Source: an uncultured delta proteobacterium (lineage in GTDB: Bacteria; Desulfobacterota; Binatia; Binatales; Binataceae). Taken from it: a DNA stretch of 64,000 bases. Shown here in pieces: positions 1 to 62,136 of the stretch (its first letter is position 1; each line of letters begins with the position of its first letter). Both the position numbers and the translations under genes were made by a program. The stretch spans positions 581,350 through 645,349 of the forward strand of contig CAWJFQ010000010.1 of assembly GCA_963842215.1 (NCBI GenBank), in the 5' to 3' direction. Below the pieces are notes generated by a model, which saw only the letters and a list, made by a program, of their open reading frames with translations, was not told the DNA's origin and made no database searches.

Positions 1-1900
1 CGCGCACGTTTTCCGACAGGCCCTGGATTCCGGGCCGCAGCCGGCAGGTGTCGCGTACTATCAGGTCGACTTTCACACCCGCCTGCGACGCACGATAAAG
101 CGCACGCGTTATATCGACGTCCTCGAGCGCATTCATCTTGAACTGAATCAGGCCCGGCGCCGCGGGCGTGCTGGCTTTGATTTCGCGCTCGATTCGCGCC
201 AATAGCGCGCGCTTGAGCACGGTAGGAGCGGGCAGAATCTTGCGATAGGGACGATCGGGCATATAACCGGTCGTCAGGTAGTTGAACAACTCGGTCAGGT
301 CCTCGCCGATGGTACCGTCGCAGGTCAGTAGTCCGAAGTCGGCATAGAATCGCGCCGTCACCGGATGATAGTTGCCGGTGCCGATGTGCGCGTAACGCCG
401 CAGGCCGTTGTAATCCTGGCGAATGACCAGGATAACCTTGCTGTGAGTCTTAAGGCCGACGACGCCGTAGGTTACGTGGATGCCGAATTCCTCGAGCCGG
501 GTGGCAAACTGAATGTTCGCGGCTTCGTCGAAGCGCGCCTTCAGCTCGACCACCACCGCCACCTGCTTGCCGTTGCGCGCGGCGTCGCACAGATAGCCGA
601 TGATCTTCGAATCCGGCGAAGTCCGATAGAGAGTCATCTTGATGGCGCGGACTTTCGGATCTTCCGCTGCTTCGCGCAAAAATCGCTCGACCGAGGTCGA
701 GAACGACTCGTAGGGATGCAGCAGCAGGAACGAGCCCGCGTCGCGAATGACGTGAAAGATACTGCGGCCGACGGTGAGGCGCGGGTGATCTACAGGATGA
801 TGGGGCGGATCGTGCAGGGCAGGCTCGTCGATCGCCGCCAGCTCGCCGAGGTCGCGCATGCCGAGAATGCCGTCGACTTCGAAAACGTCGGCGCGCTCGT
901 CCAGACCAAGCTCTGCCGCCAGCATCCCGCGATGGACAGGATTGATTCCGGCCATCACTTCGAGCCGCACGATTGGCGCGAACCGGCGATCGCGCAGCTC
1001 GGATTCGATCAGCGCCAGCAAGTCGTCGGCCTCGTCCTCGTCGCGCTCGGTGTTGGCGTTGCGGGTTACGCGGAAGAGCTCGAAAGAGTCGATCAGCATC
1101 GAGGGAAACAGCAGATCGAGATTGTTGGCGACCACGTCCTCGAGCCGCACAAAATCACTTTGATTGCCGACCCGGAGAAAGCGCGGAATGCCGAAGCCGA
1201 TCGGCACTTTCACCCGCGCCATCAGCGGGTCCGAGTCGTTCTGGTAACGCGCCGTGACCAGCAGGTTGAGCGACAGATTAGAGACGAATGGGAACGGATG
1301 CGCCGGATCCATCGCTTGCGGCGTTACCAGCGGGAAAATGTTCTTGTAGTAATACTCGCGAATCGACTTGCGCTCGGCTTCCGACAGACTGGCATAGAGA
1401 CGCACGCGAATGCCGTGGTTTTCGAGCTGGCGGAGGATCTGCGGGCCAAGCTCACGCTGCCGCTGCTCGAGCTCGCGCACCACCTGGTAACATTCCGCGA
1501 TTTGCTGCTGCGGTGAGCGTCCGTCGACCGTCAGCTCGTGCATCCCGGCGACGACCTGCTGCTTGAGGCCGCCGATACGCTTCATGAAAAACTCGTCGAG
1601 GTTGGAGGCGGTGATAGCCAGGAACTTTAGGCGTTCGAGCAGCGGATTTCGTTCGTCTTCGGCTTCGTGCAGAACGCGTCGATTGAAGGCGAGCCAGGTG
1701 AGCTCGCGATTGAGAAACAGGTCGGGCGAAGCGAGGTCCTTGTCGATGTGCGGCGGCGGCGCTTTCTCGATCGCTGAAACGGGAGTATCGACAATATCAG
1801 TCACGACCGGCGAGACTGCCGCGACTCCATTTCGAGGCGCCGGCGCCTCCGCAACCGCGGTCGAGGCAACTATTCCGGGACTGTCTGCCTGATTCGCCAT
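1..1900 (-). CDS. ppk1: Polyphosphate kinase 1 (3' end beyond window edge)
   Basis: Manual minus-strand translation from ATG at 1900: LFLNRELTWLAFNRRVL...LERLKFLAITASNLDEFFMKR, LLLHPYESF, ELKARFDEAANI, GLKTHSK, HIGTGNY. Missing from the ORF track because there is no stop in the window. Confidence 0.95.
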   Translation of the reverse strand, partial: MANQADSPGIVASTAVAEAPAPRNGVAAVSPVVTDIVDTPVSAIEKAPPPHIDKDLASPDLFLNRELTWLAFNRRVLHEAEDERNPLLERLKFLAITASNLDEFFMKRIGGLKQQVVAGMHELTVDGRSPQQQIAECYQVVRELEQRQRELGPQILRQLENHGIRVRLYASLSEAERKSIREYYYKNIFPLVTPQAMDPAHPFPFVSNLSLNLLVTARYQNDSDPLMARVKVPIGFGIPRFLRVGNQSDFVRLEDVVANNLDLLFPSMLIDSFELFRVTRNANTERDEDEADDLLALIESELRDRRFAPIVRLEVMAGINPVHRGMLAAELGLDERADVFEVDGILGMRDLGELAAIDEPALHDPPHHPVDHPRLTVGRSIFHVIRDAGSFLLLHPYESFSTSVERFLREAAEDPKVRAIKMTLYRTSPDSKIIGYLCDAARNGKQVAVVVELKARFDEAANIQFATRLEEFGIHVTYGVVGLKTHSKVILVIRQDYNGLRRYAHIGTGNYHPVTARFYADFGLLTCDGTIGEDLTELFNYLTTGYMPDRPYRKILPAPTVLKRALLARIEREIKASTPAAPGLIQFKMNALEDVDITRALYRASQAGVKVDLIVRDTCRLRPGIQGLSENVR

Positions 1901-2086: not shown

Positions 2087-3274
2087 ATGAATAACTACTT
2101 GTACGAGGTCGCAAAGCGGCTGATTGCGTTCGACACGGTCAGCGCGAAAAGCGATCGCGACGCGATGGAATACCTCGCAAGCGAGCTCGTGCGGCGCGGA
2201 TTCAGAACCGCGCTGCAGCCAGTCGAGCTGTTCGGCGTCTCGCAGGCGAACCTGGTCGCATGGGCCGGACCGCCGCGGGCAGATGGTCTGATAATTTCCG
2301 GACACGTGGACACCGTTCCTTATGATGGGCAGCCCGGATGGGAGCGCGAGCCGCTCAAGCTCGAACGTGAGGGCGAGCGAATCTACGGCCGCGGCACCAC
2401 CGATATGAAGGGGTTCATCGCGCAATGCCTCGACGCGGCGCACACGCTCGAGAGCTCCAGGCTCAAGCGGCCGCTGGTATTCGTATTTACCGCGAGCGAG
2501 GAAATCGGATGCCTCGGTGCTCATAGCGTCGCACCGGCGCTCAAGCAAATCCTGGGCGAGACGCCGGTGCCGCAGCTGGCGTGGATTGGAGAACCGACGT
2601 CCTGGGGAGTCGCCCATGCGCACAAGAGCATCGTGTCGTTCGGCGTAACCGTTCGCGGGCTCGGTGGGCATAGCGGTGCGCCAGCCAAGGGCGTCAATGC
2701 GATCGCGGTGATGGCGCGAGTCATGGACACCATCGGGCGCTATCAGCAGGAGCTGACGGCGCGCCGGCCGCCGAAATATGCAGAGATTTTTCCCGACGCG
2801 CCGTGCGACGTGCTGAATTTCGGAACGGTGCACGGCGGAATCGCGCTCAACATGATTGCCGAGGAGTGCAAGCTGCGCGTTAGCTATCGCACGCTGCCCG
2901 ATACCGATCCGCTCGACGTATATCGTGAGATCGAGCGCCGCATTGGCGCGCTGGACGGGTTCGATTACGCCGGCCGCGAACATCGCGCGCAAATTGAAAC
3001 CGCTCTGATGAACATAGTGCCACCCCTCGATTCACCGCGCGGGACGGCTCTGGAAGCCGCTCTATTCGAGGTCACCGGCGCGAATACATCGGGCGGCGCG
3101 CTCTACGGCACCGACGGGGCATGGTTTACGGGGTCGGGTATCACGTCGCTAATCTGTGGTCCGGGCGATCTCGAGCAAGCGCATCAGCCCAACGAACACA
3201 TTCGGCGCGACGCGTTCGAACGCGGCACCGCGATGATTCACAAAGTGATCGAGCGGCTGTGCTGCGCTGCCTGA
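2087..3274 (+). CDS. argE: Acetylornithine deacetylase (M20 family)
   Basis: SGHVDTVP, GRGTTDMKGF, SEEIGC, IGEPT, GGHS and AHQPNE motifs. Confidence 0.85.
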   Translation: MNNYLYEVAKRLIAFDTVSAKSDRDAMEYLASELVRRGFRTALQPVELFGVSQANLVAWAGPPRADGLIISGHVDTVPYDGQPGWEREPLKLEREGERIYGRGTTDMKGFIAQCLDAAHTLESSRLKRPLVFVFTASEEIGCLGAHSVAPALKQILGETPVPQLAWIGEPTSWGVAHAHKSIVSFGVTVRGLGGHSGAPAKGVNAIAVMARVMDTIGRYQQELTARRPPKYAEIFPDAPCDVLNFGTVHGGIALNMIAEECKLRVSYRTLPDTDPLDVYREIERRIGALDGFDYAGREHRAQIETALMNIVPPLDSPRGTALEAALFEVTGANTSGGALYGTDGAWFTGSGITSLICGPGDLEQAHQPNEHIRRDAFERGTAMIHKVIERLCCAA

Positions 3275-4414: not shown

Positions 4415-5082
4415 CGCGCTACCGCCGCTGGGCGCGGGCCGTGCGCAGCTTCGCCACCTTCCTGGTCGAGGCGTATGTGATCGACGAGCCGCGAGCCCAG
4501 CCGCTCCATGGTGTCGAGCGATTGCGACTGCTTGCGTGAAAAAAAGTTGAAAGCGAACAGCGCGAGCACCGCGATCAGCAATCCCAGGGCGGTGGCAATC
4601 AGCGCCTGCGCGACGCCCGCCGTCACTTGCGTCGGCGCGACCAGCGTCGACGAGCCGATCACGTTGAACGATTGCATCATGCCCGTGATGGTGCCGAGCA
4701 GTCCGAGCAGGGGAGCCGCGGTGACGATAGTCTCGAGCACCCAAAGTCCGCGCGCGAGGGTTTTTTCGATCCGCCCGGCCTCATCGCCGGCCCTGGATTC
4801 GACCCACCACGCGGGCTGGTTGCGATTGTCGGCGATCACTTGAAGGAAGCGTCCGTACGCGTTGCGCGGTCCGAGCTGTTTCAAATGTTTCTCGAGCTCG
4901 ACCCACGAAAATCCGAAGGTCTCGATCAGGTCCGCGACTGACGCCGGCATCCGCAGGCATCGGGCATAAAGCACGGCACGGTCGATGATAATTGCGACTG
5001 CCAGCACGCCCAGCACCAGCAGCGGATAAACCATCGCGCCGCCGAACTTCAGCGCCTGCCACGCTACTGCTAGTTCCTGCAT
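4411..5082 (-). CDS. exbB: MotA/TolQ/ExbB proton channel
   Basis: AAPLLGLLGTITGMM and ALIATALGL motifs; AAGGAG SD upstream. Confidence 0.93.
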   Translation of the reverse strand: MQELAVAWQALKFGGAMVYPLLVLGVLAVAIIIDRAVLYARCLRMPASVADLIETFGFSWVELEKHLKQLGPRNAYGRFLQVIADNRNQPAWWVESRAGDEAGRIEKTLARGLWVLETIVTAAPLLGLLGTITGMMQSFNVIGSSTLVAPTQVTAGVAQALIATALGLLIAVLALFAFNFFSRKQSQSLDTMERLGSRLVDHIRLDQEGGEAAHGPRPAAVAR

Positions 5083-51906: not shown

Positions 51907-52230
51907 TCAGACCAGAGTGGGAATTTTATCGAGCCGACTGCCGAGTCGGCGCGCAGCTTCCCAGGTGTCGTAACGCCCCTGCAGCCTGATCAAGATTCCC
52001 GGGCCATTGCCGCAGAGCTTGCCCAGCCGAACAGCCATCTCGGAGCTAATCGAGATGCCGCCGACCATGACTCGATGTAGAGTCTGACGACTCACGCCGA
52101 GCAAGGTGGCAATTTCACCGATGGTCCGATGACGCCGCAGTTCAGGCATGACCTCTTCGGCAAAAATAACGCCGGGATGAATCGGCTTGCGTGCGGCTAC
52201 CTTTTTCCGATCAACGGCATACTGCTTCAT
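51907..52230 (-). CDS. higA: HigA/VapI-type HTH antitoxin
   Basis: PIHPGVI, LLGVSRQTLH, ISSEMAVRLG, LQGRYD. Confidence 0.82.
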   Translation of the reverse strand: MKQYAVDRKKVAARKPIHPGVIFAEEVMPELRRHRTIGEIATLLGVSRQTLHRVMVGGISISSEMAVRLGKLCGNGPGILIRLQGRYDTWEAARRLGSRLDKIPTLV

Positions 52231-52241
52231 TTCGGCAGCCT

Positions 52242-53312
52242 CTAAATTTGGTACACGAACAGTTTCTGCTCTTTGGGCTTCAGAAACACGTGCGCGCCGT
52301 TCTCCAGATGCAGCGTCTGGAAGCGCTCGTGGCTGATCTCGACTTGCACCATATCGCCCCATTCGGCGACCAGCTCGACCTTGACCTGCGGGCCGGCCGG
52401 ATTGATCGACTTCACCGTCGCGGGGAAAGTCTGCTTGCCGTTGGGCCGCAATACGATTTCCAGCAGATGCGGCCGCACGTAGAGCACCGCCTTGCCGGTC
52501 TCGGGATGCGCATGCGCGTGCGTGTTGTCGAGCTCCACAGCGGTGTCGCCAAGGAACACGCGGCCGTTCTCGATTCGGCCGTGGAACAGGTTCACGTTGC
52601 CTAGGAAGTTATACACGAAGGCGTTGGCGGGATGGTGGTAGACTTCCTCGGCCGAGCCAATCTGCTCGATCCGTCCTTGGTTCATCACGACGATGCGGTT
52701 GGCGAGCTCCAGCGCTTCTTCCTGATCGTGGGTGACGAAGACACTGGTTATTTTGATCTCGTCATGCAGCCGCCGCAGCCAACGGCGCAGCTCCTGCCGC
52801 ACTTTGGCGTCGAGCGCACCGAACGGCTCGTCGAGCAGCAGAACCTTCGGCTCGACTGCTAGCGTGCGCGCAAGTGCGACGCGCTGGCGCTGTCCGCCGG
52901 AGAGTTGCGAGGGGTAGCGGTCGGCCAGAAAATCGAGCTGCACGAGTTGCAGTAGCTCATGCACGCGTCGCGCGATCTCGGTCTCTGCAGGACGCGCGCG
53001 CCGCGGCAGCACCCGGAGTCCGAAGGCGACATTTTCGAAAACTGTCATATGTCGGAACAGCGCGTAATGCTGAAAGACGAAGCCGACTTTGCGCTCGCGA
53101 ACAGCAACGGCGCTGGCGTCTTCGCCGTGAAACAGCACCTCGCCGGTGTCGGGCGTTTCCAACCCGGCGATTATTCTCAGCAGCGTGGTCTTGCCCGAGC
53201 CCGACAGGCCGAGCAGCGCGACCAGCTCGCCGGTTTCGATATGCAGGCTGATGTTGTCAACCGCAACGAAGTCGCCAAACTTCTTGCTGATGTTTCTAAG
53301 CTCGATACTCAT
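52242..53312 (-). CDS. cysA: Sulfate ABC transporter ATPase
   Basis: [29 protein letters not shown] tail; operon context. Confidence 0.95.
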
Positions 53313-54193
53313 GCGGCCACTTTGATCGCCAGGTCGTCCTGTTCCTGCTTCACCGGAACTACGCGGCGCTCGAGCGAATACTTGGCCACTAGCGTCGCGA
53401 TGGCAAGCAAGGTAAGCAGCGACGAGACCGCAAACGCTGCTGCGAACTGGTAGTCATTGTACAGAATCTCGACATACAGCGGCATCGTGTTGGTATGCCC
53501 GCGGATGTGCCCCGAGACCACCGAGACCGCCCCGAACTCACCCATCGCGCGCGCGTTGCACAGCACCATCCCGTACAGCAGTCCCCATTTGACGTTGGGC
53601 AATGTCACCCGGAAAAACATTTGCCATCCGCCGGCGCCCAACACGATCGCGGCTTCTTCTTCTTCGCTGCCGACCGCCTGCATGATCGGGATTAGCTCGC
53701 GGGCGGCGAGTGGAAAGGTGACGAAGATGGTAGCGAGCACGATTCCCGGCTCGGCAAAGATGATCCTGATGCCGTGTTCCGCGAGCCATCCGCCGAGCGG
53801 CGCGCGCACCCCAAGCAGCAGCACGAAGAGCATCCCCGAAATGACCGGAGACACCGAGAACGGTATGTCTATCAGTGTCAGCAAGGTTTGCTTGCCGGGA
53901 AAATCGAAGCGCGCTATGGCCCACGACGCGGCAATCCCGAAAGTGACGTTGAGCGGCACCGCTATGGCCGCGGTCATCAAGGTCAGGCGAATGGCGGCGC
54001 GCGCCTCCGGATCAGTGATCGCGGCGAAATAAGCGCCGATTCCTTTCGCGAACGCTTCCGCAAATACTGCAACCACCGGTAGAAATAGAAAAAGCGCCAG
54101 GAAGCCGAAAGTCGTCGCAATCAGGGCAACCCTGACCCACGGTGGATCCGCAGTCCCAGGCCTTTTCGGTTCGCCTTGCGAATTGGTAGCCAT
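53309..54193 (-). CDS. cysW: Sulfate ABC transporter permease
   Basis: [29 protein letters not shown]. Confidence 0.95.
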
Positions 54194-54201
54194 CGACGAG
54201 G

Positions 54202-55035
54202 TCAGGCCGTGAGCCGGCGGCTGCTCCACCTTTGCAGCACGTTGATAGCGAACAGAAGCATGAACGACGCCGTCAGCATCACCACGGCGATCGCGGTCGC
54301 ACCGGGATAGTCGAACTGCTCGAGCTTGCTCATGATTAGCAGTGGCACCACCTCGGTGCGCATCGGCATGTTCCCCGAGATGAAAACGACCGAGCCGTAT
54401 TCGCCGAGAGCGCGCGCGAACGCAAGTGCAAATCCTGTAAGCAGCGCCGGAATCAGCGCCGGCGCGATAACCAGGACGAACGTCTGCAAGCGGCTCGCGC
54501 CGAGCGTCGCGGCAGCCTCCTCGTATTCCTGGTCGAGATCCTCAAGCACCGGCTGGATAGTGCGAACCACAAACGGCAGACCTACGAAAGTCAGTGCCAC
54601 CGCGACTCCAATCGGCGTGTAGGCGACTTGTATTCCAAGCGGCGCGAGGTAGCGCCCGACCCATCCATTGCTGGCGTAAATCGCAGTCAGAGTAATTCCC
54701 GCTACCGAAGTCGGCAGCGCAAATGGCAGATCGACCATCACGTCAATCAGCGTCTTGCCGGGAAATTCGTAACGGACCAGGCTCCACGCGACAATGAATC
54801 CGAAAACCGAGTTGACCGATGCTCCCACCACGGACGCGCCGAAGCTCAGCTTGTATGCCGCAATCGTGCGCGGACTTGCGACGGCCGCCCAGAATTGAGG
54901 CCAAGTGAGGGTGAAAGTCTTGAAGAAGATCGTCGAGATCGGAATCAACACGACGATTCCGAGATACGCCAGCGTGAAGCCCAGGGTCAGGCCGAATCCC
55001 GGCAGTACATTGGTCCTTTTCGTGGTCGATGCCAT
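54202..55035 (-). CDS. cysT: Sulfate ABC transporter permease
   Basis: LPGFGLTLG, DLPFALPTSVAG, GEYGSVVFISGN. Confidence 0.95.
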   Translation of the reverse strand: MASTTKRTNVLPGFGLTLGFTLAYLGIVVLIPISTIFFKTFTLTWPQFWAAVASPRTIAAYKLSFGASVVGASVNSVFGFIVAWSLVRYEFPGKTLIDVMVDLPFALPTSVAGITLTAIYASNGWVGRYLAPLGIQVAYTPIGVAVALTFVGLPFVVRTIQPVLEDLDQEYEEAAATLGASRLQTFVLVIAPALIPALLTGFALAFARALGEYGSVVFISGNMPMRTEVVPLLIMSKLEQFDYPGATAIAVVMLTASFMLLFAINVLQRWSSRRLTA

Positions 55036-55060
55036 CGCGCTTCGTTATGCTCCGACTCCG

Positions 55061-56092
55061 CTAATTTCCTGGTTGATACACTTTATCGAATATCCCGCCG
55101 TCGCCGAAAAACTTCGGCTGTGCGCTCTTCCATCCGCCAAAATCCGCATCAATAGTCATCAGGGTTAAGCCGGGGAACTGGTTTGCATATTTCGCGGCGA
55201 CGGTCTTGTCGCGCGGACGAAAAAAATTCTGCGCGATTATTTCCTGTCCCGCGGGCGCGTATAGAAATTCCAGGTACGCTTTCGAGATAGCCGCCGTGCC
55301 GTGACGCTGGTCCACCTTATCCACCCATGCGACCGGAGGTTCCGCCAGTACGCTTACCGACGGATACACGATCTCGAACTTGTCGGCGCCGAATTCCTTG
55401 ATTGCCATCCGCGCCTCGTTTTCCCACGCGATCAGCACGTCGCCGAGCTGGCGCTCGACGAACGTGGTGGTCGAGCCGCGCGCGCCGGAATCGAGCACCG
55501 GCACATTTTTGTACAGCGCGCCGATGAACGCAGCCGCCTTGGCCTCGTCGCCGTTGTTCTTCTTCAGGGCGTAGCCCCACGCCGCCAGGAAATTCCAGCG
55601 CGCGCCGCCCGAGGTCTTGGGATTCGGTGTGATCACCGCGATGCCAGGTTTCACCAGGTCATCCCAATCGTGAATGTTCTTTGGATTTCCCTTGCGCACC
55701 AGCAGCACAATGGTCGAGGTGTAGGGGCAACTGTTGTCGGGCAGGCGCGATTGCCAGTCGGCCGGCAGCAAGCCGGCCTTGTCGACGATCGCATCGATGT
55801 CGCCGGCGAGGCCGAGCGTCACGACGTCCGCCTCGAGACCGTCGATCACCGCGCGCGCCTGCTTACCCGAGCCGCCGTGCGATTGCTCGATATTGACGTC
55901 GTTGCCAGTCTTCGCCTTCCACTCCTTTGCGAATTGCGCGTTGACCGCCTCGTAGAGCTCGCGCGTCGGATCGTACGATACATTGAGAATTGTGATCTGG
56001 GCGGCATGCGCAGCGCCCATCCCGAAAACAACGCTCGCCGCCAAAGTGATGGCGGCGAGCGTATGGCTGAATTTCAATTTGCGGCCGTTCAT
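55061..56092 (-). CDS. sbp: Sulfate-binding periplasmic protein
   Basis: [39 protein letters not shown]. Confidence 0.95.
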
Positions 56093-56099
56093 TCTCACC

Positions 56100-57569
56100 T
56101 CAAAACGAGATCTGCAGTTGCGACTCGATGACGCTTTCGTTGGGCCGGTCCTTGGGCGCGGCGGTTGTACCGGCGCCGCCGTCGAAAAAGGTATTCGCAT
56201 AGTCCCACTGCCACTTGATGTTCGAGTTCAGATACCAGTTGATTCCCGCTGCAAACTCGGTCGCAGTTTTCGCGGCCACATTCGGAGCGGCGAAACCGAG
56301 TTGGAATTGCCGGGTATCGGCTGCGACATTGCTGATTCTGGCCGCCAACTCCAATCCACCCCACCATCCGTTGCGCGGATCGAACGGATGATACGGCTTA
56401 ACCCAGCCGTAGGACGCGTTTTCGCCAGTCAGAATGTAGGAAGCCTGCGCGAAGTAGCCGGTGTCAGTGAACGTATCGGTACGGTTGATTTGCCGTTTGA
56501 ACGGAGCACTCCCGACAGTGGTGAACCGGTTCAGCGAATGCGAGTCCTGCGCGTACTCCGCCATCAAACCCAGGCCGCGCCAGTAGTAGTAGGCCTGCGG
56601 CTCAAGACGCGCACGCAATCCCGACGCGGTCACGCCCGAATTGTAGGAGAACCAGGTGCTCTGGCCGTACGTCTTGTAGACCGAAGTTGCGCTGCCGCGC
56701 TCGTCGCCATAGGAACCGGCGAAACCAAAGCCCAGCCCCTTGAGCCATTGGTTCTCGGTTAGCTCGAACGGCGTCGCGAAGACGCGGCCGACGAAATCCT
56801 TGCCGTCGTTGTTGTCGATGTCGGTAGTGTCCGCAGCAGTATTGTTAGGTACCCCATTCATTAACGCGGCATCATAGTAAACGCGGCCCTCCAGTAGTCT
56901 GCCGTGCAGGTCGAAACCAGTGTCGCGGTTCGGGACCAGATTCTGGATCTCCGAACGTTCGCTGAATTCCAAATCGCGGTCGGACTGTAGCCGCTCGAGA
57001 TCCAGCGGCGCTTTGAACTTTCCGGTTCTCAGGCTTGCATAATCCCAATAGGTGATATTCAGGTAGGCATCCTGCAGCGTAACTTTGCCTTGGCCGAAGT
57101 CCGGCGTGATGTTGAAATTGTAGTAGTCCGCAACTGAGCCGGTCAGAATCGGGCGCACTCGGTTCAGGTAGAACGTGCTGCTGATGTTCTTGTCGCTGCC
57201 ACTGGTAAAGAAACGGCCGTCGCCCTGGATGATCCCGCCGAAATTGATGTTGTAAGCGTGGTTGGGCGACGACAAGGAAAATCCCTCGTCGCCAACCTTG
57301 ACGACCGGCGCCTGCAGCGCATTCTGGTGCTGGACCTGCTGCTGCACCTCAAGTTTCTGGTCGATCACTTTCACTTTCTGATCAAGTCCCTCCAGCGTAT
57401 CGACCCGGTGCTCGAGCTGTTGGATCTGAGTCTTCAGCAGCTCGATTTCCTGATCCCTCGGATCGGCAGTCCGCGTGGACTGCGCCTGCGCCGGCCCGGC
57501 GGGAATAAACACCCCGGTTACTATCGCTGCCAGCAGGATTGGCAGGATCGGCAAAGTGCATTTTCTCAT
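56100..57569 (-). CDS. OprO/OprP-family anion-selective porin
   Basis: Signal peptide, N-terminal coiled coil, [29 protein letters not shown]-terminal QLQISF. Confidence 0.88.
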
Positions 57570-57672
57570 CTCGAAAGCCCCTCGTAGTCTTGGGAACTTC
57601 CGGATGACCGGTCAGCTCGTGGTTTACAATTAAACGCTCTGTCATGGTGCCGCCGGATCCTTCCCTGGTCCG
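57562..57672 (-). repeat. Duplicated structured leader, copy A (before the porin)
   Basis: 26-nt exact match 57588-613 = 58600-625; second block 57642-672 ~ 58654-683; includes the SD and ATGAGAAA. Confidence 0.92.
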
Positions 57673-57717
57673 CGCTTCTCCATTGAATTTTACTTTTGTA
57701 CCGTCACGCGTGATTCG

Positions 57718-58581
57718 TCATTTGATGCAGCCGCCGGGCTGGTTGTTGGTCGCCCCCGTGAAGTTGCCAAACCATTTGTTGGTGCCGCAACTCGAGTTCG
57801 CGTCGAACAGGTCGTCCTTTGAATTGCTGCCCGCCGCTGTCTCTGTCTGGTTGGTGATAATCGAGCTCTTGGCGCCGAAATCGAGCGCGACACCGTAGTT
57901 GGTATTGCCCTGGATGTTTCCCGTGAAAAGGTAGTTGCCCGGTGACGGACCGACTCCGGGGCATCCGGCGCTGATCGGTCCGATCGGCGAGCATCCAACG
58001 TACAATCCGATGTTGCCGTTCGACTCGGTTTTGGAATTGGTAACGTCACTCGTGGACGTTTGTTTCAGCCATATTCCGTAGTTGAGATTGTCCTCCGCCG
58101 TGGTGTTGGTCAGCTCGATATCTGAGGCTTTGCTCAGTTCCACGCCTGCAGTTCCATTGCTATTCGCCGAGACGTCGTCAGCAACGATTTGCCTGCCCTC
58201 GATGAGCAAACCGACATCCCACCCGCTTATCACGGTGCCGCGGAATCCAAGAAAATCCGAGCGAATGCTGCGATGAACCCAAATCCCGATTCCGCTTGGC
58301 GAGGTGCCGCCGGCGCCGGTGACGCTTTTCTTTGCGCCGTCCAAAATCACGAAGCTCGAAGCGATCTCGATGCACGCACCGGCCGGAGTAAGTCCCTGTG
58401 ATGAACTAATTGCCAACCCGAGCTTGTAGGAGCCGGGCGTAGTAATCGTGCATCCGCAAGCATTAATAGTCGGCGGGCATACTGCCTGCGCCGAGGCCGG
58501 AGCCGGCAGCGTTAAGGCTCCGGCGGCCACCACTGTCGCCAGGAGCACCCCCTGAAAAAAAAGCGTAGCGCAGTTTCTCAT
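57718..58581 (-). CDS. Secreted right-handed beta-helix (PbH1/NosD-like) protein
   Basis: Signal peptide; repeats NGTAGVEL, NLNYGIWL, NGNIGLYV, NTNYGVAL; Cys-rich. Confidence 0.75.
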   Translation of the reverse strand: MRNCATLFFQGVLLATVVAAGALTLPAPASAQAVCPPTINACGCTITTPGSYKLGLAISSSQGLTPAGACIEIASSFVILDGAKKSVTGAGGTSPSGIGIWVHRSIRSDFLGFRGTVISGWDVGLLIEGRQIVADDVSANSNGTAGVELSKASDIELTNTTAEDNLNYGIWLKQTSTSDVTNSKTESNGNIGLYVGCSPIGPISAGCPGVGPSPGNYLFTGNIQGNTNYGVALDFGAKSSIITNQTETAAGSNSKDDLFDANSSCGTNKWFGNFTGATNNQPGGCIK

Positions 58582-58683
58582 CTCAAAAGTCCCTCGTCAT
58601 CTTGGGAACTTCCGGATGACCGGTCGGCTCGCAGTTGTGATTGACAGCTCTATTCATGGTGCGCCGGATCCTTCCCCGGTCCG
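58574..58683 (-). repeat. Duplicated structured leader, copy B (after DUF2292, before the beta-helix gene)
   Basis: Matches copy A with an offset of about 1012 nt. Confidence 0.92.
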
Positions 58684-58735
58684 GGCTCCTCGGCGAAATT
58701 TCCATGGTTCGCGGACGGCTCACTTCGATCGCAAA

Positions 58736-58933
58736 CTATCCACGGCTTGGCTTGTCGAAACGGAACTTTTCCTTGCGCTCGATTTGAACCACCCGCGAAT
58801 CCTGGATTACGACCTCGATCGAGCCAAAGCGGACGCCGCTGATTGCATTGGCGATACGCCGAAGGATCTCATCGCCCGGGTCAGATTGAAGCGGAGCATC
58901 GTGGCCGCGGTTCAAGATCGATTCTACTTTCAT
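58736..58933 (-). CDS. YezD/DUF2292 (OscA-like) small protein
   Basis: 65 aa; AISGVRFGSIEVVIQDSRVVQIERKEKFR; AGGA SD. Confidence 0.88.
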   Translation of the reverse strand: MKVESILNRGHDAPLQSDPGDEILRRIANAISGVRFGSIEVVIQDSRVVQIERKEKFRFDKPSRG

Positions 58934-58936
58934 AAG

Positions 58937-58961
58937 ATATCCTATTAGATTACTAGACTTA
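58937..58961 (-). promoter_or_regulatory. Putative Rrf2/CymR-like operator 2
   Basis: TAAGTCTAGTAATCTAATAGGATAT; resembles operator 1 and overlaps the SD. Confidence 0.55.
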
Positions 58962-59056
58962 TTGTACAAAAAAACTCTAGGGTCGCGTCCGAACTGCATA
59001 CGTTGCGAATTTGTTGAATCCGGGTCTGCATTGTCATGCATCGATGCGACCTGCCC

Positions 59057-59103
59057 TAAGTCGATAAGGTGGCTAGACTAAAGATCGCGCCTAAATCAGT
59101 CAA
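59057..59103 (-). promoter_or_regulatory. sigma70 promoter with overlapping Rrf2/CymR-like operator 1
   Basis: TTGACT(59103-098)-N17-TAGTCT(59080-075); operator TTAGTCTAGCCACCTTATCGACTTA (59081-057). Confidence 0.65.
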
Positions 59104-59201
59104 GGGTTACAAATAGGAAATATTTGGCGGACGCCAGCGAGAATTCCGCTCTTTGTGACCTAATCGTGATGTCTCGTCGGAGACACGATTACGGCTTTAT
59201 T

Positions 59202-60044
59202 TCAGCGCGCCTTGGCCTTCATTTCGCCGTACTTGTCGAGCAATGGAAGAACCGTATCGCGCGTCGCGGGCGGCAGTGCGAAGATCAGCCGGTCGACGCC
59301 GAGGTCGAGGAACTTTTTAACATGCTCCTCGTTCGGGCCGACACCGAACATCGAGACTGGAAGTTTCTTGCGGCCGGCCTTCTTGCCCGCATCGGCCAGC
59401 GTCTTGAGATTGCCGGCCAGATCATAGCGTGGAAAGTTTATCGGCATCCATCCGTCACAATATTCCGCGACGCGATCGAAAGTCTTGGGCGATTGTGAGC
59501 CAAGCAGGATCGGCGGTCCACCGGCCTGCACCGGCTTGGGGAACGACCAGATCGGATCGAAATTCACGAACTCACCATGAAACTCGGCGGCCTCCTTGGT
59601 CCAGATCTGTTTCATCGCAAGGACTTTTTCCTTGACGATTTTCCAGCGCCGCTTGAACTGGGCGCCATGATTCTGCATCTCTTCGACATTCCAGCCCGCG
59701 CCGATTCCCAGAATCACGCGCCCGCCGGAAATCATGTCGAGCGAGGCGACTTCCTTGGCCAGTGTGATTGGGTCACGCTCGATCACCAGGCATACACCCG
59801 TGCCTAGCTTGAGTTTCTTGGTGACCGCGGCCGCCGCGCCCAGCGCGACGAACGGGTCGTGCGTGTGCCAGTATTCCTTGGGCAAGTCAGCGCCGCCGGG
59901 CCATGGGGTTTTGCGCGACGCGGGTATATGAGTGTGCTCGGGGAAGAAGAGCGACTCGAAGCCGCGTTCCTCCGCCGCGAGTGCAAGTTCGATCGGCTGG
60001 ATTGCGTAGTCAGTCGGGAACATCGAGACTCCAAATTCGGCCAT
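59202..60044 (-). CDS. LLM-class (probably F420-dependent) oxidoreductase
   Basis: GFESLFFPEHTHIP, DPFVAL, LGIGAGWNVEE, PKPVQ...PPI. Confidence 0.88.
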   Translation of the reverse strand: MAEFGVSMFPTDYAIQPIELALAAEERGFESLFFPEHTHIPASRKTPWPGGADLPKEYWHTHDPFVALGAAAAVTKKLKLGTGVCLVIERDPITLAKEVASLDMISGGRVILGIGAGWNVEEMQNHGAQFKRRWKIVKEKVLAMKQIWTKEAAEFHGEFVNFDPIWSFPKPVQAGGPPILLGSQSPKTFDRVAEYCDGWMPINFPRYDLAGNLKTLADAGKKAGRKKLPVSMFGVGPNEEHVKKFLDLGVDRLIFALPPATRDTVLPLLDKYGEMKAKAR

Positions 60045-60144
60045 GGCGATTCCTCCTGGGTCAAGCGGGCGATGCGCCGCCGCCTGCGTCAGAGTTTCAT
60101 ATCACAACTGGCAGGCGAAGCGTCTGCGCTTCACTGCTGCGATG

Positions 60145-62136
60145 CTAATTTTGAGTTGTCGACGCGCCGACGACGCGGACCTTCGCCGTCGAGCCGGGAA
60201 TCCTGTCTGCCGCCATCGGCTGGTAGCGTCCACCCAGGTTGTCGGCCAGGAACTTTTCCATGCGTGCGGTGAAGTCCAGCCGGTTTTCAGGCCGCACGAA
60301 ACCGTGGCCTTCGTCTGTATATAAAACGTAAACGGCATTGCCGCGATGTTTCGCGATCGCATCGACGATTTGCTCCGCCTCGGCCTGCTTGACGCGCGGA
60401 TCGTTCGCGCCCTGGCCGATCAGCATCGGGATTTTAATCTTGTCGGCGGAGAAAAGCGGTGACGCCGCCGTCAGCAGCTGCTTGTCCCCGGGATCGCCGG
60501 GATTGCCAACCCTGGTGAAGAAGATCGCGCGCACGACATCCCAATACGGCGGAAACGACGCCAACAGCGTGAACAGGTTCGAGGGGCCGCATTCGTCAAC
60601 CGCGCATCGATAGAGGTCGGGCGTGAAGGCGGCGCCCGCCAACGCTGCGTAGCCGCCGTACGATCCGCCGAATATCGCGACGCGTTTCGGATCCGCGATT
60701 CCCTGGTCGACGGCCCATTTCACGCCATCGGTCAGATCGCTCTGCATCGTGCGGCCCCATTCGCGGTCGCCCGCGTGCAGATATTTCTTTCCGAATCCGG
60801 TCGAGCCGCGAAAATTAACCTGGAGCACGGCATAGCCCCGGTTTGCGAGCAGTTGAATGTTGGGACCGAAGCCCCAACTGTCGCGCGCCCATGGTCCGCC
60901 ATGCACCACCAGCACCAGCGGCAGATTTTTCGCAAGCACGCCCGTCGGCAGCGTCAGGTAACCGTTGAGCTTCATGCCGTCGCGCGCGGTGAATTCGACC
61001 GGCTTCATCGTCGCGAGCGGAGCGTCGTCGAGTTTTGGCTGGACGCTGAACAGGAGGGTCGCCTTCCTCGATTCGCGATCCCACGAATAGTAGCGCACCG
61101 GCGCGCGATCGCTGGAGAACGAAACAAGCCAGGTCTTGTCGGCGAGGTCGCGGTCGGCGACACTGAAATCTCCGTCACTGATTTTGGCGATCGCGTCGAA
61201 GTCGGCCTGAATCGACGGATCGACAACCGTCCAATGCATCCGTCCGGGGTCGAACGCTACCGCCTGCACTACGTGCCGCGTCGGCTGAATCATCGCGTCG
61301 CTCAAATCGGCGGCGTCGCTATGCGCGATCGTCGTCTCCTTGCCTGACGCCAGCTCATGGCGCACCAGGCGCGCGGTATCCGTCCCGATCGAGCTGCTGA
61401 GAAAGATCTCTTGGCCATCCTTGGTGAAGTCCAAGGCCGCCAGGTTATCTTCCCGCCCTGCCTTTATCAGCGTGCGCCACGGACCTGCCGCGCTGTCGCG
61501 AATCCGAATCTCGGTGCCGCCGTCGGGCGTCGTGATGGTGGCGGCGCGAACCGTCATATCGTCGTCAGCGAGCCACCCCGCGACGTCGCCGGGGTTTTTG
61601 GTGTCGAGCTCGACCGCACCGGTGCCCAGATCGACGCGATAGACGTCCATCAATTTGCGATCGCGCAGATTGAGTGCGACCAGGACGCGCGCGGGAAATT
61701 TTGGACTCGAGGCGACGAACTCGGCGCGCACAGCTTGCCACGGAGTCAAGTCGCGGACGTTGTGCGAGTCGAGATCGACGGCGAACAGATGGAAGTTCTC
61801 GTCGCCGGCGGCGTCCTGCGCGTAGAGAATCGTTTTCGAATCGAACGCCCATCCGAAAGTCTGAATTCCACGGCTCTTGTCCGCCGTGACTACGCGCGCG
61901 TCCTGTTTGCCGATAGTCTGCACCCATACTTGCAGGATTTCGTGCTCATCCGGCGCGAGCCACGCCAGCCGCTTGCCGTCGGGCGAGATGTGCGGATTGG
62001 CGCGCTCAGGATTTCCAAGCAGTGTCTCTCGCGGAATCAGCGGCGGTAACTGGCCAAAACTCGGCGGCTCTGGAATTGTCGAAGTCATGGTGAGGACCGC
62101 AATGATTAATGAGAGCTTCCACGCAAATTCGAACAT
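60145..62136 (-). CDS. S9 prolyl oligopeptidase family peptidase
   Basis: VHGGPW, GGSYGG, GANDPRV, DEGHGF. Confidence 0.93.
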   Translation of the reverse strand: MFEFAWKLSLIIAVLTMTSTIPEPPSFGQLPPLIPRETLLGNPERANPHISPDGKRLAWLAPDEHEILQVWVQTIGKQDARVVTADKSRGIQTFGWAFDSKTILYAQDAAGDENFHLFAVDLDSHNVRDLTPWQAVRAEFVASSPKFPARVLVALNLRDRKLMDVYRVDLGTGAVELDTKNPGDVAGWLADDDMTVRAATITTPDGGTEIRIRDSAAGPWRTLIKAGREDNLAALDFTKDGQEIFLSSSIGTDTARLVRHELASGKETTIAHSDAADLSDAMIQPTRHVVQAVAFDPGRMHWTVVDPSIQADFDAIAKISDGDFSVADRDLADKTWLVSFSSDRAPVRYYSWDRESRKATLLFSVQPKLDDAPLATMKPVEFTARDGMKLNGYLTLPTGVLAKNLPLVLVVHGGPWARDSWGFGPNIQLLANRGYAVLQVNFRGSTGFGKKYLHAGDREWGRTMQSDLTDGVKWAVDQGIADPKRVAIFGGSYGGYAALAGAAFTPDLYRCAVDECGPSNLFTLLASFPPYWDVVRAIFFTRVGNPGDPGDKQLLTAASPLFSADKIKIPMLIGQGANDPRVKQAEAEQIVDAIAKHRGNAVYVLYTDEGHGFVRPENRLDFTARMEKFLADNLGGRYQPMAADRIPGSTAKVRVVGASTTQN

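Follow-up and report, generated by a model that had tools for sequence, protein, structure and literature searches.

The DUF2292 operon and its two leaders

The 64,000-nucleotide stretch of DNA analyzed here (hereafter the window; contig CAWJFQ010000010.1, positions 581,350 to 645,349, from an uncultured member of the Binataceae) carries on its minus strand an operon that begins with a small DUF2292 gene, and in which the next two genes are each preceded by a leader containing one copy of a 25-nt RNA hairpin (hereafter the unit). The operon, whose features given below all lie on this strand, runs from DUF2292 through a beta-helix/NosD-like gene, an OprO/P-type porin gene and sbp to two permease genes (cysT and cysW by translation). 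The first gene (58736..58933), OscA/YezD-like, encodes a protein of 65 amino acids (aa) with a PF10055 profile match of 60.2 bits against a gathering cut-off of 22 (E 1.4e-16), bearing out the assignment to DUF2292 made in an earlier reading of this sequence (hereafter the original prediction). PF10055 was the sole family listed in the Pfam scan of the protein, which is hence without CAT RNA-binding or PRD domains. Against the NCBIfam model NF033785 ('OscA') it scored 56.3 bits, below the cut-off of 85, and is therefore a relative of OscA, not an equivalog.

OscA has been described as a small protein of function unknown, in one transcriptional unit with sbp and induced by chromate or sulfur starvation (PMC2996968), and inactivation of oscA results in a chromate-sensitive Pseudomonas corrugata (PMC2996968, citing Viti et al. 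2009). Like the window protein, OscA of P. corrugata is a small member of the same Pfam family, and it leads the oscA-sbp unit; they differ in that the window protein falls below the NF033785 cut-off, and the passages on OscA in that paper describe no mechanism or RNA element (PMC2996968).

Downstream of DUF2292, the operon encodes a secreted right-handed beta-helix/NosD-like protein of 287 aa (57718..58581; PF13229 E 1.3e-7, PF05048 E 2.2e-7), a porin of the OprO/P family of 489 aa (56100..57569; PF07396 E 2.3e-18) and, as its continuation, the sulfate ATP-binding cassette importer genes sbp, cysT and cysW (53309..56200; open reading frames, sbp PF13531 E 1.6e-37). The genes cysT and cysW were named from their translations alone, and the start of sbp inside its reading frame is provisional. 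The beta-helix gene, with its own leader copy, sits between the DUF2292 and porin genes, an insertion that Binatus shares with some other genera of the Binataceae (L068, L071 and L091).

Leader B (58582..58735) lies between the DUF2292 and beta-helix genes and leader A (57570..57717) between the beta-helix and porin genes. Sequence comparison recovered two common blocks, of 70 nt at 87% and 30 nt at 90% identity, separated by a diverged spacer, with the copies about 1012 nt apart, in agreement with the two conserved blocks and diverged spacer of the original prediction. In the 4.5-Mb genome the leader occurs in these two copies only, as found by BLAST and by a covariance model (E 1.9e-7 and 1.7e-6, next best 0.054). 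Among the other species of the genus searched, 30 of 36 retain the leader in one or two copies.

The hairpin unit and its competing folds

The core of each leader is a 25-nt RNA hairpin of the form N5-GA-CCGG-N4-CCGG-A-N5', built from a 5-bp outer helix, a GA/A internal loop, a CCGG/CCGG inner stem and a 4-nt loop. Canonical unit A (57594..57618) reads GAGCU-GA-CCGG-UCAU-CCGG-A-AGUUC and canonical unit B (58606..58630) GAGCC-GA-CCGG-UCAU-CCGG-A-AGUUC; they match R2, a covariance model described below, with 37 bits (E 1.9e-7 genome-wide) and 34 bits (E 1.7e-6 genome-wide), respectively. In the outer helix of the window GAGCU, the invariant 5' flank of the proximal block, pairs with AGUUC. Elsewhere the outer helix still pairs in the variants GAGCU/AGCUC, GAACU/GGUUC, GUUCC/GGAGC, CGCC/GGCG and CACC/GGUG, and the inner stem in the variants CCAG/CUGG (10 of the 72 rows of the cross-phylum alignment) and CCGA/UCGG. 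As originally proposed, the proximal block forms a CCGG-UCAU-CCGG hairpin, flanked by GA and A(A/G)G, which is real and covaries across phyla; its extent had been drawn too short, the 5-bp outer helix (GAGCU/AGUUC) and the GA/A internal loop having been left out.

Alignment A6, with 73 units from many phyla, gave 92.5% of cells pairing and changes on both sides in 7 of 9 pairs (89 cells), a covariation that none of 500 shuffles equaled. Moreover, G-U and U-G wobbles are frequent in A6, and together with the fixed strand of the unit they indicate a constraint on RNA, not on DNA. The conserved bases concentrate in the internal loop (GA/A), the tetraloop is variable, and the 3' flank (GGAGG/GGAAG) resembles a Shine-Dalgarno (SD) sequence.

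A first model, R1, covered the whole Binatus leader and gave few matches outside the genus; as a search model it was set aside as too specific, missing the unit in most other genera. Inspection by eye of the DNA behind 20 DUF2292 genes missed by R1 revealed a shorter common unit in 18, the exceptions being L095 and L105. Model R2 was built from 37 units in rows that were pre-selected (inner stem required, at least 3 of 5 outer pairs), which biases the pairing seen in the R2 rows themselves. Two R2 matches, L215 and L216, were judged false positives from their context.

The covariance models of Rfam 15 gave no match at E<=5 in positions 52000-60500 of the window and none at E<=1 in 20 loci from other phyla, with sul1, mini-ykkC and the SAM classes among the families without a match in either set. 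The sul1 motif is a candidate cis-regulatory RNA that precedes genes for sulfate transporters and sulfur metabolism and for which no ligand is known (Weinberg et al. 2017, PMC5737381). It differs from the unit in that there is no cmscan match between them, and the passage on sul1 makes no mention of DUF2292 (PMC5737381). The unit is a new RNA motif.

At the level of the entire leader, RNAalifold on alignment A1 (48 Binatus leaders) returned two elements, a distal hairpin (P1) and a long helix formed by CAUCCGGAAGUUCCC and GAGGGRCUUYYGAGAUG, the latter containing the SD and start codon, and single-sequence folds agree. The 3' strand of this sequestor helix covers the SD (GAGGGA) and AUG of the beta-helix gene in leader B (58579..58595) and the SD (GAGGGG) and AUG of the porin gene in leader A (57567..57583). 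Alignment A3 (75 sequences, including more distant family members) gave 96.9% of cells pairing and both-side changes in 9 of 21 pairs (6 of 7 in P1 and 3 of 14 in the sequestor), a result unreached by any shuffle. The original prediction missed the long helix, in which the 3' half of the unit pairs with the SD and AUG.

Its distal hairpin, in turn, had been drawn in the wrong register: the proposed CCRG/CCGG pair is unpaired in 53 of 68 sequences, and the segment folds instead as CGGACC-AGGGAA-GG(A)UCCG, with 6 of 7 pairs compensatory. Taken as one structure, the two hairpins originally drawn showed no excess of pairing (87.3% vs 87.1% paired, equaled by 180 of 500 shuffles). Since the distal register fails, the four related units that had been proposed become two canonical units and two different hairpins. 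The latter are the non-canonical P1 hairpin B (58665..58683, CGGACC-GGGGAA-GG(A)UCCG) and P1 hairpin A (57654..57672, CGGACC-AGGGAA-GG(A)UCCG). The AGGGAA loop of P1 hardly varies in Binatus, and P1 also has a bulged A; in other genera a second canonical unit occupies its place, and P1 may be a diverged second binding site. Two long-range pairings, GGGAA/UUCCC and GGAUCCGG/CCGG..AUCC, were weighed on A1 by eye alone, and both were dropped; in the former, three variants break pairs without compensation.

In the organism of the window, Candidatus Binatus, the unit competes with the longer helix, in which the start codon and ribosome-binding site are hidden. By computed folding, the unit alone reaches -10.7 kcal/mol in leader A and -7.9 kcal/mol in leader B, and the best fold of the leader is the sequestor, 5.6-6.4 kcal/mol better than the best fold in which the unit is enforced, so that the RNA by itself should be OFF. 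In Nitrospira and other groups, as read from the sequences, the outer 3' strand of the unit is able to pair with the SD or the start region. In three loci (L112, L115 and L214) the base after the inner stem of the unit is the first of a strong hairpin with a U-run behind it, and the 5' arm of this hairpin takes the A and the outer 3' strand of the unit; these terminators were revealed by folding, and a simple terminator scanner missed all three. In most lineages examined the competing structure hides the ribosome-binding site rather than forming a terminator. The unit thus combines compensatory changes with a mutually exclusive fold that hides the SD and start or forms a terminator, as structured cis-regulatory RNAs in general do. 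The predicted folds suggest that the closed unit would be the ON state in both designs, and a single conserved element that works with two different expression platforms is the hallmark of a switch read by a trans factor.

Linkage of the unit to DUF2292 within the family and across phyla

The family sample consisted of 151 genomes, including one unpublished (G228), on which alone no claim rests. DUF2292 was found in 79 of them, and 66 of these 79 have a unit nearby; the Escherichia coli control genome gave no PF10055 match. At E<=1e-3, R2 gave 110 matches in the family, 92 of them within 2.5 kb of a PF10055 match and 75 within 300 nt; at E<=1e-4, 64 of the 66 genomes with a match also have DUF2292. 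Within the genus, DUF2292 and the unit occur together in the same 26 of 32 genomes. Of the six genus genomes with neither, five were searched with the sbp and porin proteins, G023 being left out. G007 (one contig, 97% complete) and G010 keep the porin-sbp operon with both DUF2292 and the unit missing, and in these two the porin-sbp genes are directly preceded by an Rrf2-type regulator gene and a short AT-rich spacer. In G005 sbp lies at a contig edge, and G018 and G294 gave no sbp or porin match.

Just ahead of the first gene of the operon, at 58934-58965 of the window, there is an AT-rich word (TAGTCYAGT..AATAGGATA-like). A similar word is found in G007 and G010 (L220, 2990-3050; L221, 3110-3170), with the Rrf2-family regulator gene directly upstream. 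This word is likely a promoter or an operator for a CymR/IscR-like repressor.

Some genomes that carry DUF2292 also have units at a distance from it, in front of genes for lipoproteins, OmpA-like proteins and other envelope proteins, and such remote units fit a trans-acting factor. Remote canonical units are those of L078 (about 3032-3062 and 4693-4723, minus strand), L214, L209, L210, L213, L211 and L212. The genes behind them encode an OmpA-like lipoprotein (with the terminator in L214), a small lipoprotein and a large outer-membrane-type protein, a 114-aa secreted protein and an FAD-type oxidoreductase. By their position, the remote units hint at a small regulon that may be controlled in trans.

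Beyond the family PF10055 is rare (18 of 401 genomes of the phylum sample), and units again follow it where it is present in other classes. A scan of all GTDB species gave at least 541 DUF2292 loci, of which 80 were kept, 70 of them (L139-L208) outside the closest Binatus set. The 80 loci span about a dozen phyla, with members of Binataceae, Nitrospira, Acidobacteriota, Thermoanaerobaculia, Methylococcales, Alcanivorax, Pseudomonas flexibilis, Asticcacaulis, Planctomycetota, Brocadiaceae, Cytophagia, Methylomirabilota, Hydrogenedentota, Omnitrophota, a 'Clostridiales' metagenome-assembled genome, Cohnella, Geobacter and others. At E<=1, R2 gave 93 matches in these loci, 92 of which were on the strand of the DUF2292 gene and downstream of it, most of them directly behind it and, in Binatus, with second copies about 1 kb further. 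In P. flexibilis (L182) the unit lies between the DUF2292 gene and sbp, and many leaders downstream of DUF2292 carry tandem units. The next gene encodes a porin in 36 of the 80 loci, a beta-helix protein in 8 and Sbp in 3, and was unrecognized by four queries in 33. The OprO/P-type 'phosphate' porin is thus the commonest gene behind DUF2292 and the hairpin across phyla, and its substrate is probably sulfate or a related anion rather than phosphate.

Among the 70 loci outside the closest set, 47 have an R2 match at E<=0.005, and a recognizable variant of the unit was seen by eye in about 13 of the other 23; L164 and L167 are doubtful and L186 ends at a contig edge. A model-free pattern found 62 units in 55 of the 70 loci on the strand of the gene and none on the opposite strand; at least 4 of 5 outer pairs form in 41 of these 62, compared with 3 of 56 genome-wide in the genome of the window, the two real copies included. 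The tight, strand-specific link of the hairpin to DUF2292 hence extends across phyla. The original prediction had expected a GA-CCRG-loop-CYGG-A hairpin downstream of other DUF2292 genes, with CCRG/CYGG covariation and conserved flanks; such a hairpin was found there, on the strand of the gene. The observation is far beyond chance, and at the level of comparative genomics the central idea of that prediction is well supported.

Some loci depart from this arrangement. In L123 (about 1474-1674, minus strand), which belongs to a relative of high GC content, the stop codon of DUF2292 overlaps the GTG at which an XRE-type helix-turn-helix gene begins, and R2 matches lie 700-1400 nt further downstream; a DUF2292-helix-turn-helix fusion was rejected here, given that the overlap joins the stop to the GTG of a separate gene. 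No unit is visible directly behind DUF2292 in L125, L121, L146 (Geobacter) and L200 (Cohnella), and the next gene differs as well, being O-acetylhomoserine sulfhydrylase-like in L125 and other open reading frames in the remaining three. Further downstream in L121, R2 gave candidate matches at distances of about 390 nt (23.2 bits) and about 600 nt.

A candidate DUF2292-dependent switch and its alternatives

The unit appears and disappears with DUF2292, lies behind the DUF2292 gene and has remote copies in genomes that carry the gene, for which the simplest reading is that DUF2292 binds the unit. We consider it reasonably probable, on comparative grounds, that DUF2292 binds the unit and stabilizes its closed form, switching on the following genes. 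Each leader carries one copy of a widespread cis-regulatory RNA hairpin. In the OFF state the loop and 3' half of the hairpin would pair with the SD and start codon of the next gene, and in the ON state the hairpin would be held closed and the ribosome-binding site left free. The holding factor would be DUF2292 itself, translated from the leading cistron of the same transcript. As a small RNA-binding activator, it could act as an anti-sequestor here and as an antiterminator in lineages with a terminator overlapping the hairpin, and under sulfur limitation it would thereby license expression of the porin, the beta-helix protein and, probably, the sulfate importer. The binding is inferred from co-occurrence alone, and activation by binding, like any signal sensed by DUF2292, is proposed on top of it. 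The architecture fits the suggestion in the original prediction that DUF2292 might activate translation or antiterminate, the hairpin being exclusive with an SD/AUG sequestor here and with terminators elsewhere.

The AlphaFold2 (AF2) model of DUF2292 (pLDDT 78) has a helix at residues 19-32 and strands at 37-44 and 47-55, for a predicted fold of one helix and a beta-hairpin with a basic tail. Foldseek against the PDB gave nothing at E<=0.001 (best E 0.95), the PDB sequence search gave chance-level matches only, and the search of the ESM Atlas, with PF10055 clusters set aside, gave no usable match. The homodimer prediction scored 0.40, the mark being 0.42. The outcome of the fold search neither supports nor excludes RNA binding.

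Several observations weigh against binding of the unit by DUF2292. No unit lies nearby in 13 of the 79 family genomes with DUF2292, and G248 (72% complete) has a strong unit with no detected DUF2292. No unit was visible behind the family loci L095 and L105, and none was seen by eye in L146 (Geobacter), L166, L178, L180, L198, L200 (Cohnella) and L204. In Binatus the sequestor helix varies one-sidedly in 7 of 14 pairs and on both sides in 3 of 14; A3, with its 75 sequences, and the 73-unit A6 were fitted to their models, and the related genomes are not independent. No known RNA-binding protein resembles the predicted fold of DUF2292, and nothing in it marks an RNA binder. Furthermore, gene and hairpin could travel as a module for reasons besides direct binding.

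In an alternative that we regard as unlikely, the hairpin would be a genuine RNA element for regulation or attenuation whose reader is not DUF2292 but some other protein, a small RNA, the ribosome, RNases or temperature. DUF2292 would then have a non-RNA job (e.g., in porin biogenesis or sulfur handling), and the hairpin would only set the ratio of DUF2292 to downstream expression. The conserved cross-phylum core of DUF2292, unit and porin (36 of 80 loci) would likewise stay together if DUF2292 and the porin were functionally linked, the 3' flank GGAGG/GGAAG is SD-like, and the fold search gave no hint of RNA binding. However, such an arrangement gives no reason for the loss of a 25-nt element exactly with DUF2292 and leaves unexplained the units at distant loci ahead of unrelated envelope genes. 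Expression platforms of both kinds, translational and transcriptional, point to a dedicated switch factor. CsrA, considered as a reader of the GGA-rich P1 loop, was rejected, as no CsrA gene (PF02599) was found in the genome of the window (G000, 89.8% complete), and control genomes gave matches.

The two expression platforms (SD sequestor and terminators) around one conserved element, the clustering of conserved bases in the internal loop and the tandem units in many leaders would suit a very small riboswitch that closes on a sulfur-related small molecule or ion, with DUF2292 simply heading the operon; the guanidine-II class offers a precedent for small hairpins in tandem. Nevertheless, riboswitches precede the first regulated gene, whereas the unit is rarely found without a DUF2292 gene immediately upstream, and in G007 and G010 it is lost together with that gene while the regulated operon stays. 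In addition, the tetraloop varies, the pocket would be limited to about 25 nt and one 2x1 internal loop, and no Rfam riboswitch matched in the window or in the 20 cross-phylum loci, and for us a riboswitch is an improbable explanation. Copies that are 83-87% identical, first codons included, could be taken to mean that the leaders duplicated recently and neutrally, or act as an operator at the DNA level, and have no function as RNA. This reading is already contradicted by the cross-phylum unit with its compensatory and wobble changes and strict strand bias, by the retention of both copies in most species of the genus and by a spacer that diverges while the blocks do not, and we give it almost no credence.

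Binding of the unit by DUF2292 would place this protein beside known regulators of leader folding. In the BglG/SacY/LicT antiterminators, a small RNA-binding module closes a ribonucleic antiterminator (RAT) hairpin of about 29 nt with internal loops, whose 3' side otherwise forms the base of a terminator, the default being OFF and the protein turning expression ON. The proposed closing of a small internal-loop hairpin from a default OFF state would be analogous; in contrast, DUF2292 is without the PRD sensor domains, the hairpin sequence is unrelated, the competing structure mostly masks the ribosome site instead of terminating, and the candidate regulator is encoded directly upstream on the same mRNA. 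The Pfam scan (PF10055 only) listed neither the CAT nor the PRD domains of the BglG/SacY CAT-RAT system. HutP, TRAP and PyrR are small oligomeric proteins that choose between alternative leader folds of a metabolic operon, binding repeated short single-stranded triplets or a distinct hairpin and each sensing a known metabolite, whereas here the site is a structured hairpin with no known ligand, and no fold likeness was found. ANTAR regulators (AmiR, NasR and EutV) recognize two small tandem hairpins, the second overlapping a terminator, with hexaloops that have fixed bases. Tandem units are likewise common downstream of DUF2292, but their loops are variable tetraloops, the conserved feature is the GA/A internal loop and the protein is not an ANTAR domain. 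Since the protein matches PF10055 only, it is not a member of the BglG/SacY, ANTAR, HutP or TRAP antiterminators. DUF2292 is a probable new family of RNA-binding proteins with a known kind of mechanism.

A literature search, with supplements and subscription journals outside its scope, found no paper giving a mechanism for DUF2292/YezD/OscA or describing the hairpin. DUF2292/OscA/YezD proteins are small, widespread and induced by sulfur starvation, and the link to a hairpin turns their unknown function into a testable hypothesis, besides adding an RNA motif that Rfam 15 lacks. The finding suggests that in many phyla sulfate uptake, together with a dedicated outer-membrane channel for anions, is controlled after transcription; next to Nitrospira, methanotrophs and pseudomonads, these lineages include uncultivated groups from soil, among them Binatia. 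In a broader and rather doubtful form, DUF2292/OscA/YezD would be the founding member of a phylum-spanning class of RNA-binding switches of about 45 residues, which would clamp the 25-nt hairpin with its GA/A loop and so lift termination or the masking of the ribosome site, though only when sulfur metabolites are in a particular state, and would govern in trans a small regulon including outer-membrane channels. If true, this class would represent a missing post-transcriptional arm of the bacterial sulfur-starvation response.

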